A program made the translations under genes and the position numbers. This document shows positions 3,358 through 12,073 of a DNA stretch of 12,073 nucleotides, one piece after another (positions within the stretch are counted from its first letter, which is position 1; each line of letters starts with the position of its first letter). A model generated the notes under the pieces. It was not told the origin of the DNA. It did not search any database and was given only the letters and a program-made list of their open reading frames with translations. Location of the stretch: IMG/VR virus record IMGVR_UViG_3300045988_125741, positions 1 to 12,073 of that record; one strand, 5' to 3'. Source of the stretch: a virus.

Positions 3358-3362
3358 TAGAA

Positions 3363-3390
3363 AATAGGCGGATAATCCGCCTATTTCCTT
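3363..3390 (+). terminator. Hairpin terminator/attenuator after the capsid gene
   Basis: AATAGGCGGA (3363..3372), loop TAA, TCCGCCTATT (3376..3385), then TTCCTT. The stem is 10 bp but the U-tract is only moderate, so it is probably leaky because downstream late genes must still be expressed. Confidence 0.5.
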
Positions 3391-3402
3391 ATGGAGGTAA
3401 AT

Positions 3403-3834
3403 ATGAACATTAAACTTTTATCATATTCACAACCTAAAAACAGTGTTAAGAAATCCTATACCACATGGGCAAATTTAACAGGTTCAATGCGTGATACACT
3501 AAATATTGTAAACCCTGTATTTTTAGTTCAAGCAACAGAGCAATATGACAAGGCTAACGCTGTTTATTGTGAAGAGTTGGATAGATACTATTTTATCACA
3601 GGGAAAGAGTGGGTAAGAACCGGACTTTTGGCAATTTCATGTCATGTTGATGTATTAGTGACATATCAGGGAGACATCTGGAACAATTCCGGCATTATAT
3701 CAAGAAATTCAAATCTATTTAATGGATATTTGCCCGACAATAAACAAAAGATTTTTCAATATGACAAGACACAAATTAAAGTATTTCCAAGGGAAATCCT
3801 AGTTGATACCAATATTTTGATTACTGTGGGGTGA
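3403..3834 (+). CDS. Tail protein resembling the N-terminal domain of the phi29 gp9 tail knob
   Basis: ATG at 3403 lies 5 nt after GGAGG (3393..3397); the track start at 3391 sits on the SD. The product is 143 aa. The pattern NAVYCEELDRYYFITGKEW..LLAISCHVDVLVTY matches the remembered gp9 N-terminal pattern ASYIMFQNADYGNKWFYAFVTEL..VHFEIDVLQTW. Confidence 0.6.
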   Translation: MNIKLLSYSQPKNSVKKSYTTWANLTGSMRDTLNIVNPVFLVQATEQYDKANAVYCEELDRYYFITGKEWVRTGLLAISCHVDVLVTYQGDIWNNSGIISRNSNLFNGYLPDNKQKIFQYDKTQIKVFPREILVDTNILITVG

Positions 3835-3838
3835 CTAT

Positions 3839-5440
3839 ATGAATATCATACGATTAGGAATTTTTGACGAAACAGGCGTAAAATTTGTAAAAAAGGTAGA
3901 TGCAGGTTTTTTTAATCCTAACGGTGCTCTTGCATCTGCTCTTTTATTGAAGCCGCTTGTAAATACCCAGATAGATGCTATAGAATATTCAACCGTTCTT
4001 GTAAATCATATAGGACATATGGAAAATATAAATGACACTTTTTCGGGCGGTAGTAATATTTCTGATTTATTTAATGATAATTCCAATAAAATTTTTGTTA
4101 TGAAAAATGAAAAGGAAAAGACAGAAAATTTTTTGCAAGTTATAACAACGGAGACACAATATTCAGGGATTACATATTTTATTGGTGATAATAGGATTAA
4201 TCAAGAAGCTACACTAACATTGCCTGTTGCTAATAGTATAATAAAAATGTGTTACTATTACAGAATTGTTAATAATGTTTTAAAAGAGTTTATTGGTTGG
4301 TTATATCTAGCACCTACTGGGCAAATAGACACATCAGGCCTGCCAACATATAGAATATCTGGGGTTCTTGTTGATTTAAATTTTTGGGAAAAAGGCAAAG
4401 TGCCCCCATTTGGAGACCCCACACCGGGGGGTGCAATTGGAGGATATGGTACATATGACGATACAAGCGACAATTTCCCAATTCCGCCCAATAGATTGAA
4501 TGATGTATATGGTAGCATTTTATCAAACCAAAACGGAAAAATACAAATGTATACGCTTGATTCTGGTGCGTATGGGGCTTTCCTTGGCAAAATTTACACA
4601 AATGATTTTTGGCAATATTGGAAAAATACAATGTTTAATCCTCTGGAGGGCATATACAGTTGCATCCGTGTTCCATTTAGTGAACTTGAACTAACACGGT
4701 CTGCCGTTGCTAAAATTAATGTATCAAATACAGAACTTGAAATTTTGGCAGGCGCGTACAAAGTTACAAATAATTACGTTAAAGACCAATTAATTACCTC
4801 CAATTATGTAATTGATGAATATTTTGGTAGTTTTCTTGATTATTCCCCGTACACTACATGCGAATTATATATCCCTTTTTATGGAACAGTAAACATAGAT
4901 ATAAACGAAATTATGGGTGGAAATATTTCCATCACTAGAAGAAATAACTATGTAAATGGGGATTTTGTGGTGTTCGTTCAATGTGTGAATAGATTTGGGA
5001 TTGCTGTCACGCATGCATATGCTGGAAATGCCGCTATCACATTACCAATTACAGCCGGAAATGACGGTTCCCCTAACAGAATACTTGACCTGGTTCAGGG
5101 TGTAGCCAATTTAGCAATGGGAAATTATGTTGGTGCTGGGACATCAGCGGTAAATGCTTTGACAGAAAAAGGAAATACTTCAACGGTTCAAAAATTATCA
5201 GGAGGATCCGGATGGAATGCAAGTCACGATTTTGCATTAATTTTCCGGCGTTCATGCCCCAGCAATCCAGAAAATTACACCAAGGAAAACGGCAGACAAG
5301 CAGACGAATTTGTAAATTTTTCAGATTTACAAGGATATACAGAAGTATCTGCTGTAGATTTGAAATTTACATCTGGTAAAATTACATCGGCAGAAATTGA
5401 CGAAATTAACAATTTATTGAAACAGGGGGTATTTTTCTAA
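3839..5440 (+). CDS. Tail protein; C-terminal half resembles the C-terminal part of the phi29 gp9 tail knob
   Basis: 533 aa. SPYTTCELYIPFYGTVNIDINEI resembles gp9 [23 protein letters not shown]. A Gly/Ala-rich segment (VQGVANLAMGNYVGAGTSAVNAL) resembles GMIGGGISAGASAAGGSALGM. The C-terminal GKITSAEIDEINNLLKQGVFF resembles GDINNNDLQEIRTIFDNGITLW. The N-terminal ~300 aa are not recognisable. The ATG at 3839 lies 4 nt after the stop of the preceding ORF. Confidence 0.6.
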   Translation: MNIIRLGIFDETGVKFVKKVDAGFFNPNGALASALLLKPLVNTQIDAIEYSTVLVNHIGHMENINDTFSGGSNISDLFNDNSNKIFVMKNEKEKTENFLQVITTETQYSGITYFIGDNRINQEATLTLPVANSIIKMCYYYRIVNNVLKEFIGWLYLAPTGQIDTSGLPTYRISGVLVDLNFWEKGKVPPFGDPTPGGAIGGYGTYDDTSDNFPIPPNRLNDVYGSILSNQNGKIQMYTLDSGAYGAFLGKIYTNDFWQYWKNTMFNPLEGIYSCIRVPFSELELTRSAVAKINVSNTELEILAGAYKVTNNYVKDQLITSNYVIDEYFGSFLDYSPYTTCELYIPFYGTVNIDINEIMGGNISITRRNNYVNGDFVVFVQCVNRFGIAVTHAYAGNAAITLPITAGNDGSPNRILDLVQGVANLAMGNYVGAGTSAVNALTEKGNTSTVQKLSGGSGWNASHDFALIFRRSCPSNPENYTKENGRQADEFVNFSDLQGYTEVSAVDLKFTSGKITSAEIDEINNLLKQGVFF

Positions 5441-6120
5441 TGTTTAAAGAGCGAACAAGTAAACCAGAAAAAGGAAACAAGTACTACACCACAAAAGACT
5501 GCGGGGGCTGGAGCCCGTGCATCAAGGGCAAACCTACTGATACCGATTGTAATGTACTGTCAAATTGTGTCGGGTATGCTGTAGGCAGATTCAATGAGAT
5601 ACATAACCGGAATTCATGCGACCTGTTGGGTAGTAGGAATGCAGGCCTATTGACAGAATTTTGTAAAACACAAGGGCTGATGCTAGATTCTTACATGCCC
5701 CATGTGGGTGCTGTAATGGTTTGGCAAAAAAAGAATGGTGCAGGTCATTGTGCCATAGTAGAAAAAGTTGTAAATGAACATACTGTAATTACCAGTGAAA
5801 GCGGGTACAATTCAAGAATACCATGGTGGCGGAAAGAACGGTGCCGTGGTTCTGGTAGATGGGGGTGTGGTTCTGCCTACACTTTCATAGGATTTATTTA
5901 CAAGGAGGAAATAAAAAATATGGTAAAAATGGGTTCAGTTGGTGCAGATGTCACGAAAATACAGGTGCGTTTAAGAGCATTGGGGTATTTTGATAGTCTG
6001 TGTGATGGTCACTTTGGCAAAAAGACCCTTGGTGCAGTTCTTTCTTTCCAGAAATTGAACGGGCTTGCAGTAGATGGTATTGTGGGGATTAAAACCCTTA
6101 CAGCATTAGGACTAAAATAA
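5440..6120 (+). CDS. Endolysin: CHAP/NlpC-P60-type cysteine peptidoglycan hydrolase + C-terminal PG_binding_1 domain
   Basis: The start overlaps the upstream stop (TAATG), and GGGGG lies about 9 nt upstream. The candidate catalytic Cys is in SNCVGYAVGRF and the candidate His in GAGHCAIVEKV. The C-terminus GADVTKIQVRLRALGYF..GHFGKKTLGAVLSFQKLNGLAVDGIVGIKTLTAL is a textbook PG_binding_1 repeat. Confidence 0.85.
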   Translation: MFKERTSKPEKGNKYYTTKDCGGWSPCIKGKPTDTDCNVLSNCVGYAVGRFNEIHNRNSCDLLGSRNAGLLTEFCKTQGLMLDSYMPHVGAVMVWQKKNGAGHCAIVEKVVNEHTVITSESGYNSRIPWWRKERCRGSGRWGCGSAYTFIGFIYKEEIKNMVKMGSVGADVTKIQVRLRALGYFDSLCDGHFGKKTLGAVLSFQKLNGLAVDGIVGIKTLTALGLK

Positions 6121-9509: not shown

Positions 9510-10058
9510 TCAATCAAACCACTCAAAAGGATTTGAAAAACTTTCTGCCATTTTTCTTTCTTCTTCCTCTGCTTCAAAACGTTTTTTTACAAAAGCCATT
9601 TCAACCATATTATATAATTCTTCTACTGTTTTAACCCGATGTAATGACATTGTTCGTTGAACAATTTTCACCGCTTCTTTGTAGGGCAAAACATCGTAGT
9701 ATTCTGATTTATAATAAATATCATATAGTACTTTTTTCAATAATGCGTCGTCAATTGCATTGAATTGCTTTCTGCCTTTGTAACCACCTAAAATTTGCTT
9801 TTCCTTTTGTTTCTGGTTTTTCTTTAGTGCTTGTTGTAATTTCTTCTCTTCCCTGTCTTTTTTTCGTAACTCTGATGCATATTTGTCTTTCTTTACTTGT
9901 TTTGCTAATTGCCGTATTTGCTGTTGCGCTTTCCTCTTTTCTTTTGCCTGTTGTTTCCTTATTTGTCGTTTCTTTTCTTTTACTGATAGTTTATCGGCAG
10001 TAGCACCCCTCTTGGGGGGTGCTTTCCTGGTGCTGTTTTTCTTTTTTGGTTTAGCCAT
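9510..10058 (-). CDS. Putative terminal protein (priming protein); extremely basic N-terminal half
   Basis: 182 aa, immediately upstream of pol as in phi29 (gene 3 then gene 2). Its stop TGA (9512..9510) lies inside the pol SD. The start ATG at 10058 overlaps the upstream stop (ATGGCTAA). The N-terminal ~97 aa are K/R/Q/E-rich (MAKPKKKNSTRKAPPKRG...KEKRKAQQQIRQLAKQVKKDK...). The C-terminal half is Tyr-rich (LYDIYYKSEYYDVLPYK) with an acidic tail. I recognise no sequence signature; the call rests on synteny and composition. Confidence 0.5.
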   Translation of the reverse strand: MAKPKKKNSTRKAPPKRGATADKLSVKEKKRQIRKQQAKEKRKAQQQIRQLAKQVKKDKYASELRKKDREEKKLQQALKKNQKQKEKQILGGYKGRKQFNAIDDALLKKVLYDIYYKSEYYDVLPYKEAVKIVQRTMSLHRVKTVEELYNMVEMAFVKKRFEAEEEERKMAESFSNPFEWFD

Positions 10059-11787: not shown

Positions 11788-12073
11788 AATAGTCAACTTG
11801 CACAAATATAATTATATAATATGCCAGTATACTCTTTGTATATGGGAAAGAGTGGTAATTGTAAAATTCAGTCAATTACAATAAATTACATCAAATTGTA
11901 AGCTACTGGAATATGTGTAAGTTATTGTAATTGTTATAAATTGGTAGTTGGATGGAAATGAAATGGTAGTGATTGGCATTGCTGGAATATTATTGTAAGT
12001 GTTGGGAATTGGCAGGAAGTGGCTAGGAATTGGGATTTATTTACTCGATTTCCATGGAAATATTTACTGTACC
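11788..12073. repeat. Right inverted terminal repeat (ITR)
   Basis: Exact reverse complement of 1..286. Each position p in the left copy maps to 12074-p. Confidence 0.97.

Follow-up and report, generated by a model that had tools for sequence, protein, structure and literature searches.

A conserved two-gene tail knob in a miniature phi29-like podophage genome

The IMG/VR virus record IMGVR_UViG_3300045988_125741 was analysed over its full length of 12,073 nucleotides (nt), which we refer to as the window. Two consecutive open reading frames (ORFs) downstream of its capsid gene are the subject of this report. ORF-A (3403..3834, +) encodes a protein of 143 amino acids (aa), beginning with ATG at 3403 and ending with TGA at 3832-3834. 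ORF-B (3839..5440, +) encodes 533 aa, has its own ATG at 3839 and is read in the +1 frame relative to ORF-A. We conclude, with a probability of about 0.88, that both ORFs are a genuine and evolutionarily kept gene pair that builds the tail knob, that they are orthologous to gp9 and gp10 of Acinetobacter phage Phanie, and that the heptamer GGGGTGA at their junction would couple their translation. What was observed directly is the homology, a split that is conserved, a junction that varies and the strength of the Shine-Dalgarno site. A two-gene knob has already been described for Phanie and its relatives, and the window is an uncultured addition to that architecture.

The junction reads ATT ACT GTG GGG TGA CTAT ATG AAT. 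The G run occupies positions 3828-3831, and the ORF-A stop is separated from the ORF-B ATG by a gap of 4 nt (3835..3838, +; CTAT). Deletion of one G results in a single open frame of 678 aa that reads ...ITVGDYMNIIRLG... across the junction. The first-pass annotation, which described this layout, considered a homopolymer error that hides a single gene, a real split with coupled translation, and a +1 frameshift of the prfB type. Its sequence-level claims (coordinates, G run, junction, +1 frame and 678-aa fusion) all proved exact on re-reading. The geometry itself is unremarkable: gaps of 4 nt are normal between consecutive phage genes, short gaps are usual in the operon of ORF-A and ORF-B, a +1 frame relation has a chance expectation of 1/3, and TGA is the stop codon of 5 of the 12 genes in the window.

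Identity of the two gene products

ORF-A is confirmed as the small (probably head-proximal) subunit of the tail knob, the equivalent of Phanie gp9 and of the tube-like domain at the N-terminus of phi29 gp9. Compared by hhalign, the ORF-A profile matches Phanie gp9 over the full length (probability 98.4%, E = 5.7e-15), and a tblastn search of ORF-A against GenBank phages yields a Phanie 'putative tail knob protein' as the best match (E = 3e-6). ORF-A was also modelled with AlphaFold (mean predicted local distance difference test score, pLDDT, of 80.7). In a fold search of this model against the PDB, phi29 gp9 takes the first four places (probability 1.0, E = 0.019), and C1 gp12 and the Andhra knob come next. 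A profile of 57 ORF-A homologues, compared with all PDB sequences, ranks residues 91-133 of gp9 first (E = 0.011) and C1 gp12 second, and hhalign places ORF-A 37-107 on gp9 60-137. In the profile and structure comparisons, which had been proposed earlier, gp9 ranks first for the 143-aa product.

ORF-B is confirmed as the large (probably distal) subunit, equivalent to Phanie gp10 and to the large subunit of phage Astrid, with a weaker correspondence to phi29 gp9 in the C-terminal part of the latter. The alignment of ORF-B 237-533 with Phanie gp10 600-851 has a probability of 97.7% (hhalign, E = 2.3e-12). The C-termini of ORF-B (...ITSAEIDEINNLLKQGVFF) and of Phanie gp10 (...ATQREKQEIVALLKQGVFF) both finish with ...LLKQGVFF. 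Foldseek matches of the ORF-B model in BFVD are uncharacterised podovirus proteins (E = 5e-15 to 1e-9), one of which is the large knob subunit from Salmonella phage Astrid (A0A3G8F2C2, E = 1.4e-9), as well as a 'Major tail protein' (7e-4). The top fold match of ORF-B in the PDB is again gp9, without being significant. A weak hhalign alignment places ORF-B 410-533 on gp9 430-583, a region that covers the Gly/Ala-rich L-loop and the C-terminal E..EI...L..G motif. The weak alignments of ORF-A and ORF-B thus fall in gp9 order, N-terminal and then C-terminal.

The first-pass annotation had stated that the two ORFs look like the N-terminal domain and the C-terminal part of phi29 gp9. Profile and fold evidence bear out this identity. 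The likeness is not readable from the sequence alone: single-sequence searches of ORF-A and ORF-B against Pfam, PHROG and PDB gave nothing useful, and the assignment was a guess from gene position. ORF-A has no match to Caud_tail_N (PF16838), to which only 2 of the 57 family members show a similarity (E = 0.078, below the gathering threshold), and 53 diverse ORF-B homologues match no Pfam family. PDB profile searches with two ORF-B alignments (A2 and A4) returned noise or nothing, and a renewed search with an ORF-B alignment in a word-indexed database added 3 new proteins and no Pfam-annotated bridge. The ORF-B family, which has no Pfam annotation, is very large: its C-terminal core (profile positions ~200-548) is found in 12,650 representative clusters (50% identity) at E <= 1e-3, and in 6,313 at E <= 1e-30.

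Natural single-gene knobs provide a further line of evidence. Such proteins are encoded by L008 (3001-4542, 513 aa) and by P0050 and P0051 (527 aa). In L010 (3001-4258) the N-terminal ORF-A domain is present and the ORF runs off the end of the locus. In the fused knobs an ORF-A-like N-domain leads straight into the ORF-B core, and the N-terminal domain of ORF-B is missing. The neighbourhood of L008 is phi29-like, with a capsid gene, the knob gene, a CHAP lysin and a connector; Pfam and PDB searches with the fused L008 protein itself gave nothing. Since alignments A2 and A4 include P0050, its high scores against these profiles are partly by construction; independent support comes from its ORF-A match and from its original detection with ORF-B alone (E = 3.8e-4). 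The fused forms confirm that ORF-A and ORF-B are halves of one ancestral or alternative knob protein. They also show that the break between split and fused forms falls at the insertion site of a variable domain, as proposed in PMC11476376.

A different view of ORF-A is that it forms an independent tail-tube or neck ring, similar to a stopper or terminator protein, and that ORF-B alone constitutes the knob. Foldseek indeed returns neck proteins with a tail-tube fold (SaPI1 neck, Pam3 neck, SPP1 gp16 and lambda neck) at similar E-values, and the sequence similarity of ORF-A to gp9 is weak. We nonetheless regard this view as very unlikely: the best fold and profile matches are specifically the knobs of phi29, C1 and Andhra, there are single chains that begin with the ORF-A domain and otherwise consist of the ORF-B core (L008, L010, P0050), ORF-A is always found beside ORF-B, whichever of the two comes first, and the Phanie homologue of ORF-A is annotated and published as a part of the tail knob.

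Conservation of the split among relatives

For ORF-A, 161 homologues were found, the most distant at about 30% identity and nearly all of 142-165 aa. The family profile was used to score 122 of them, of which 119 stand alone as proteins of 142-180 aa. The homologues with at least 69% identity form 44 clusters, all of 142-147 aa, and the ORF-B homologues of the close clade have 527-560 aa; a protein of about 678 aa occurs in neither set. The layout GGGG TGA n4 ATG is identical in 8 of 8 close loci, which originate from at least 7 independent samples and from several assembly pipelines (IMG/VR, ENA human and pig gut, Logan). A single-protein scan of viral_contigs contributed one locus only. Within the close clade the spacer keeps its length of 4 nt and varies in sequence (ctat, gaat, tttt, aact, aaat, taaa).

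These data bear on the first explanation, a homopolymer error in sequencing or assembly that turned a true GGG into GGGG and concealed a single gene of 678 aa. The junction does lie inside a run of four G, and one G fewer fuses the frames. However, the same 142-143-aa ORF and GGGG TGA junction appear in all of these independent assemblies, over 100 homologue clusters, besides the 8 close loci, repeat the split and the ORF lengths, and the gene separations seen in distant relatives are impossible by any single-base error. The probability of such an error is practically negligible.

The comparison of the junction in related genomes, which had been suggested at the outset, gives varied arrangements farther out. 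Both genes are neighbours in every distant relative, in either order. Where ORF-A precedes ORF-B, the genes overlap by ATGA or TAATG or are separated by gaps of 2, 3, 9, 22 or 27 nt. The relative frames are +1, -1 and 0, and the stops are TAA, TAG or overlapping. The order is reversed (ORF-B and then ORF-A) in five loci, namely L006 (1286-3435), L007 (3-1630), L018 (1243-3581), L020 (2193-4438) and L021 (2541-4474). These loci usually have an ATGA or TAATG overlap, and in L006 and L007 a terminator hairpin follows the gene of the small subunit. Since no recoding event can join genes in the reversed order, the family as a whole makes two polypeptides.

Coupling at the junction and the case for frameshifting

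The heptamer GGGGTGA (3828..3834, +) spans the final Gly codon of ORF-A together with its stop, and the best reading of it is a Shine-Dalgarno site for ORF-B. Its core ends 7 nt before the ATG at 3839. The predicted duplex with the anti-Shine-Dalgarno sequence (-10.4 kcal/mol) is comparable to those of ORF-A (-10.7 kcal/mol), the downstream CHAP gene (-10.8 kcal/mol) and the major capsid protein (MCP) gene (-9.3 kcal/mol). GGGGTGA does not change in any of the 8 close loci, although synonymous sites next to it do. Of the Gly codons in the window, GGG is used least (43 of 222), and the invariance therefore indicates selection at the nucleotide level. Distant relatives have GGAGGTTGA, GGGGGGTTAA or AAAGGAG at the equivalent place. 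No promoter or terminator was found between ORF-A and ORF-B.

A second instance of the same design is found at the other end of ORF-B, where AGGGGGT (5424..5430, +), the Shine-Dalgarno site of the CHAP gene (-10.8 kcal/mol), lies inside the 3' end of ORF-B, and the stop and start codons of the two genes overlap in TAATG (5438-5442). ORF-A itself is preceded by the Shine-Dalgarno site GGAGGT (3393..3398, +), located 5 nt 5' of the ATG at 3403. This start is favoured over the one at 3391, as homologues begin with MNIKLL.

Translational coupling of the two cistrons is the simplest mechanism and would fit subunits that are needed in equal numbers. Both genes would be translated from one late mRNA, and GGGGTGA would direct initiation at ATG 3839, either by a terminating ribosome that re-initiates or by a new one that binds, so that the two subunits are made in roughly equal amounts. 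ORF-A would then form a hexameric ring of tube fold beside the lower collar, as a counterpart of the N-terminal domain of phi29 gp9, with its C-terminal arm adding strands to the sheets of ORF-B. The latter would form the distal body of the knob (the counterpart of the gp9 C-terminal part) together with a lateral, lineage-specific N-terminal beta domain. Of the three explanations offered at first, the real split with coupled translation is the one that agrees with the conserved split and with the Shine-Dalgarno site and ATG that ORF-B possesses of its own.

The remaining explanation is a programmed +1 frameshift of the prfB type. The +1 frameshift site of prfB, the gene of release factor 2 (RF2), reads AGG GGG UAU CUU UGA C and continues as UGA CUA (CUU UGA CUA), in agreement with the first-pass annotation. 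As in prfB, the window has an in-frame UGA followed by CUA, a G run nearby and a downstream ORF in the +1 frame. Within the close clade only, the P-site Gly-tRNA would slip from GGG to GGU and yield a minor 678-aa fusion besides the two subunits. The UGA C of the window is a weak terminator context and the +1 path GGU GAC UAU AUG is open. The rarity of GGG among Gly codons implies that something selects for it at the nucleotide level, and the natural fused knobs indicate that a fusion is not structurally absurd.

The likeness to prfB is otherwise limited. The base after UGA is not conserved in close relatives (C, G, T, A, A or T). A Shine-Dalgarno-like stimulator 3 nt upstream of the slip codon is lacking, the upstream sequence being ATTTTGATTACTGTG (AATATTTTGATTACTGTG), and the only G run is the slip codon itself. 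The slip from GGG to GGU would re-pair at 2 of 3 positions, probably poorly; a -1 slip on G_GGG would re-pair perfectly and reach a stop 4 codons on. A Shine-Dalgarno site of normal strength and spacing suffices to explain the invariant heptamer in full, and ORF-B has a conserved N-terminus behind its own ATG. Beyond the close clade the frame relation is -1 or 0, the genes are far apart, or the order is reversed. The natural fusions, which are devoid of the ORF-B N-terminal domain, are not equivalent to the hypothetical product. We therefore consider a programmed frameshift very unlikely. The fusion protein it would produce is predicted to have about 76 kDa and to contain the junction peptide ...ILITVGDYMNIIR, and the separate products are predicted to have 16 kDa and 59 kDa.

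A milder version has G_GGG_UGA and the spacer double as a low-efficiency +1 'shifty stop' in the close clade, which would supply a few 678-aa fusions per virion in addition to the two subunits. We give this version even less credence. If it were true, a covalent fusion of ORF-A and ORF-B could serve to nucleate ring assembly or to lock it, and the site would represent a rare case of programmed +1 frameshifting in a structural gene of a phage.

Several points weigh against a coupled pair of knob genes as set out above. The links to phi29 gp9 are weak, with hhalign probabilities of 5-40%, Foldseek E-values of 0.02-0.03 and Caud_tail_N below its threshold. The ORF-B model has a low predicted template modelling score (pTM of 0.41, with a pLDDT of 70.6). 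The head-proximal placement of ORF-A and the stoichiometry of a putative 6+6 assembly are taken over from published models of relatives. Finally, the 8 close loci agree without exception in GGG-TGA, in a spacer of 4 nt and in the +1 relation, and the +1 path is free of stops in 8 of 8, hence low-level frameshifting in these loci is compatible with the sequence.

Parts of the two subunits

ORF-A consists of two parts. Residues 1-95 (3403..3687, +) form a beta-rich domain of tail-tube fold (pLDDT 87-94 over residues 1-90), which also occurs N-terminally in the single-gene knobs L008, L010 and P0050. Residues 96-143 (3688..3831, +) constitute an extended C-terminal arm that ends with the conserved ...LIT(V/M/A)G and is modelled with no secondary structure (pLDDT ~59). 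The sequence of the arm is conserved despite its low pLDDT, and profile positions 105-144 are absent from the fused L008 and L010. We infer that the arm docks onto ORF-B or onto neighbouring subunits. In AlphaFold 3 models of Astrid and DU_PP_III, beta-sheets are common to both knob subunits (PMC11476376).

The small subunit is mosaic. P0096 (L026, 905-1342) is 48% identical to ORF-A overall, while its last ~45 residues are nearly identical. P0063 and P0069 are 85-89% identical overall and have a different block, AYPH(L/S)GEKILITVG, near the C-terminus. The pattern suggests recombination inside the C-terminal arm that perhaps tracks the type of the partner ORF-B.

ORF-B comprises five segments. 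Residues 1-185 (3839..4393, +) form an all-beta, lineage-variable N-terminal domain (pLDDT 77-93). Distant homologues lack this domain: their matches begin at profile position ~200, and they have N-terminal extensions of their own of ~90 to ~650 aa. It is a probable lateral add-on for receptor binding. The following Gly/Pro-rich segment PFGDPTPGGAIGGYGTYDDTSD (PFGDPTPGGAIGGYGTYDDTSDNFPIPP; residues 186-215, 4394..4483, +) is modelled as disordered (pLDDT ~30). The stretch PFGDPTPGGAIGGYGTYDDTSDNFPIPP is among the most conserved of the family despite this prediction, and the segment may serve as a contact between subunits or with the collar.

Residues 216-404 (4484..5050, +) are the conserved knob core, with a nearly invariant EYFGSFLDYSPYT...PFYG motif and the invariant residues D334, P346, G349 and G374. 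An alignment with the fused knob L008 puts the core on residues 170-359 (probability 71%), and the core also aligns to Phanie gp10. Residues 405-459 (5051..5215, +) are Gly/Ala/Ser-rich and mildly hydrophobic (pLDDT 25-44). Residues 410-459 align, at low hhalign probability, to gp9 430-505, which overlaps the L-loop. The phi29 gp9 L-loop is membrane-active (PMC6542822), and the segment is a candidate counterpart of it. The C-terminal domain (residues 460-533, 5216..5437, +) is shared with Phanie gp10 and, weakly, with the C-terminus of gp9.

Genome context

Perfect inverted terminal repeats of 286 bp (1-286 and 11788-12073) bound the window, which makes it a complete linear genome of 12,073 bp. 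The repeats hold nested short inverted repeats (141-158 with 184-201) as well as repeated CAATTACAATAA motifs. The genome is that of a miniature phi29-like podophage, protein-primed and among the smallest genomes of tailed phages. A megablast search of the whole window against GenBank phages gave no match, and the window has no close relative among those records.

The plus strand encodes a connector (PHROG upper collar, 3e-15), a 193-aa protein in the position of the lower collar and a capsid protein (Phi29_MCP, 2e-42), followed by ORF-A, ORF-B and a peptidoglycan hydrolase. The minus strand encodes a gp16-type packaging ATPase and a protein-primed family-B DNA polymerase (Pfam, PHROG). The hydrolase (5440..6120, +) has the domains CHAP (Pfam, 7e-10) and PG_binding_1 (6e-16); it appears to be translationally coupled to ORF-B and would act as an endolysin or as a tail-associated lysin. 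No tail-fibre or appendage gene (gp12-like) is recognisable in the window genome. Strong Shine-Dalgarno sites, a content of 36% GC (guanine plus cytosine) and the CHAP+PG_binding_1 lysin suggest a host from the Bacillota.

Immediately behind the stop codon of the capsid gene, ahead of the ORF-A Shine-Dalgarno site, there is a strong hairpin (3362-3386) with a stem of 11 bp (AAUAGGCGGAUAAUCCGCCUAUU), followed by UUUCCUU. The region has a folding energy of -18.2 kcal/mol (z = -3.5), and the terminator scan did not flag it. The hairpin may be a leaky terminator or an element that stabilises mRNA, lowering the expression of the tail genes relative to the capsid gene.

Two further small genes are of interest. 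A hydrophobic ORF of 53 aa (347-508, +) upstream of the connector has a sub-threshold match to YvrJ (E = 2e-6, 27.7 bits, cut-off 29.5) and may encode a small membrane or holin-like protein. A protein of 182 aa with a Lys-rich N-terminus (9510-10058, -) is encoded directly downstream of the polymerase gene, which is the position of a terminal protein; it has no family match.

Implications

The two genes are appropriately annotated as 'tail knob protein, small/N-terminal subunit' and 'tail knob protein, large/C-terminal subunit'. Merging them, or marking them as a pseudogene or as a frameshift, should be avoided. What the analysis adds to the known architecture is that it is very widespread, that it occurs in Bacillota-looking genomes, that both gene orders as well as a fused form exist, and that phage phiCPV4 has a comparable split. 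The natural set of split and fused variants can be used to study the assembly of podophage tail tips.

Comparison with known systems

The phi29-type knobs, i.e. phi29 gp9 (PDB 5FB4, 5FB5), C1 gp12 (4EO2) and the Andhra knob (8EGS), share with the window the N-terminal domain of tail-tube fold (ORF-A), a C-terminal ...E..EI...L..G(V/I).(L/F) motif, preceded by a disordered Gly/Ala-rich segment that in the weak alignments falls where gp9 has its L-loop, and the location of the gene just after the capsid gene. In contrast to the window, with its two ORFs and the extra N-terminal domain of ORF-B, they are single polypeptides of ~500-600 aa, and their sequence similarity to ORF-A and ORF-B is marginal. 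Among the relatives of the window, single chains are found only in distant ones.

A second system with a divided knob is found in the Guelinviridae. In Clostridium phage phiCPV4 (L029, 1486-4276), a cultured phage of a Gram-positive host, the gp9-like N- and C-parts are encoded by the adjacent genes gp20 and gp19 after the capsid gene. Unlike ORF-A, the N-domain in gp20 shares its chain (529 aa) with lysozyme and M23 peptidase domains. A comparison of gp19 with the ORF-B profile yields no detectable similarity, and the split of the Guelinviridae is therefore probably an independent fission, as far as can be told from sequence. We note that peptidoglycan hydrolase domains join different halves of the knob depending on the lineage: the N-domain in phiCPV4, and an ORF-B homologue with a C-terminal Peptidase_M23 domain in L016 (5828-7588), which belongs to a 13.8-kb clade.

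The closest correspondence is with Phanie and its relatives. Phanie, Astrid, DU_PP_III and gut phage 2692_55609 are phi29-like phages with genomes of 11-14 kb, a two-gene tail knob, small lower collars, CHAP-like lysins and no recognisable fibre genes (Evseev et al. 2024, PMC11476376). Phanie has, like the window, a small protein (~145 aa) homologous to ORF-A, followed by a large one whose C-terminal ~300 residues are homologous to ORF-B. The module order is the same (connector, small gene in the lower-collar position, MCP, small knob, large knob, lysin), as are the genome size class of 11-14 kb (11,885 bp compared to 12,073 bp), the protein-primed PolB, the gp16-type ATPase, the missing recognisable tail-fibre gene and the CHAP-type lysin downstream.

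The differences are that gp10 carries add-on domains with an immunoglobulin (Ig)-like fold (PMC11476376), ~600 aa in length, where ORF-B has an N-terminal beta region of ~185 aa, that the replication genes of the window are on the opposite strand, and that the Phanie genes overlap by 1 nt at the junction, compared to the 4-nt gap of the window. The reversed gene order found among the relatives of the window is not described in PMC11476376. As stated there with reference to Pourcel et al. 2024 (J Virol 98:e00667-24), Phanie is a satellite whose virions are infectious only after binding to the contractile tail of a helper myophage. The kinship with such a satellite raises the question of helper dependence in some gut phages of 12 kb.

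The knob split has been attributed to phi29-like phages of Gram-negative hosts (PMC11476376), whereas the features of the window phage suggest the Bacillota. Since gut metagenomes are rich in the gene pair, including genomes with strong Shine-Dalgarno sites and CHAP+PG_binding_1 lysins, the idea that the split is a peculiarity of phages with Gram-negative hosts looks too narrow.

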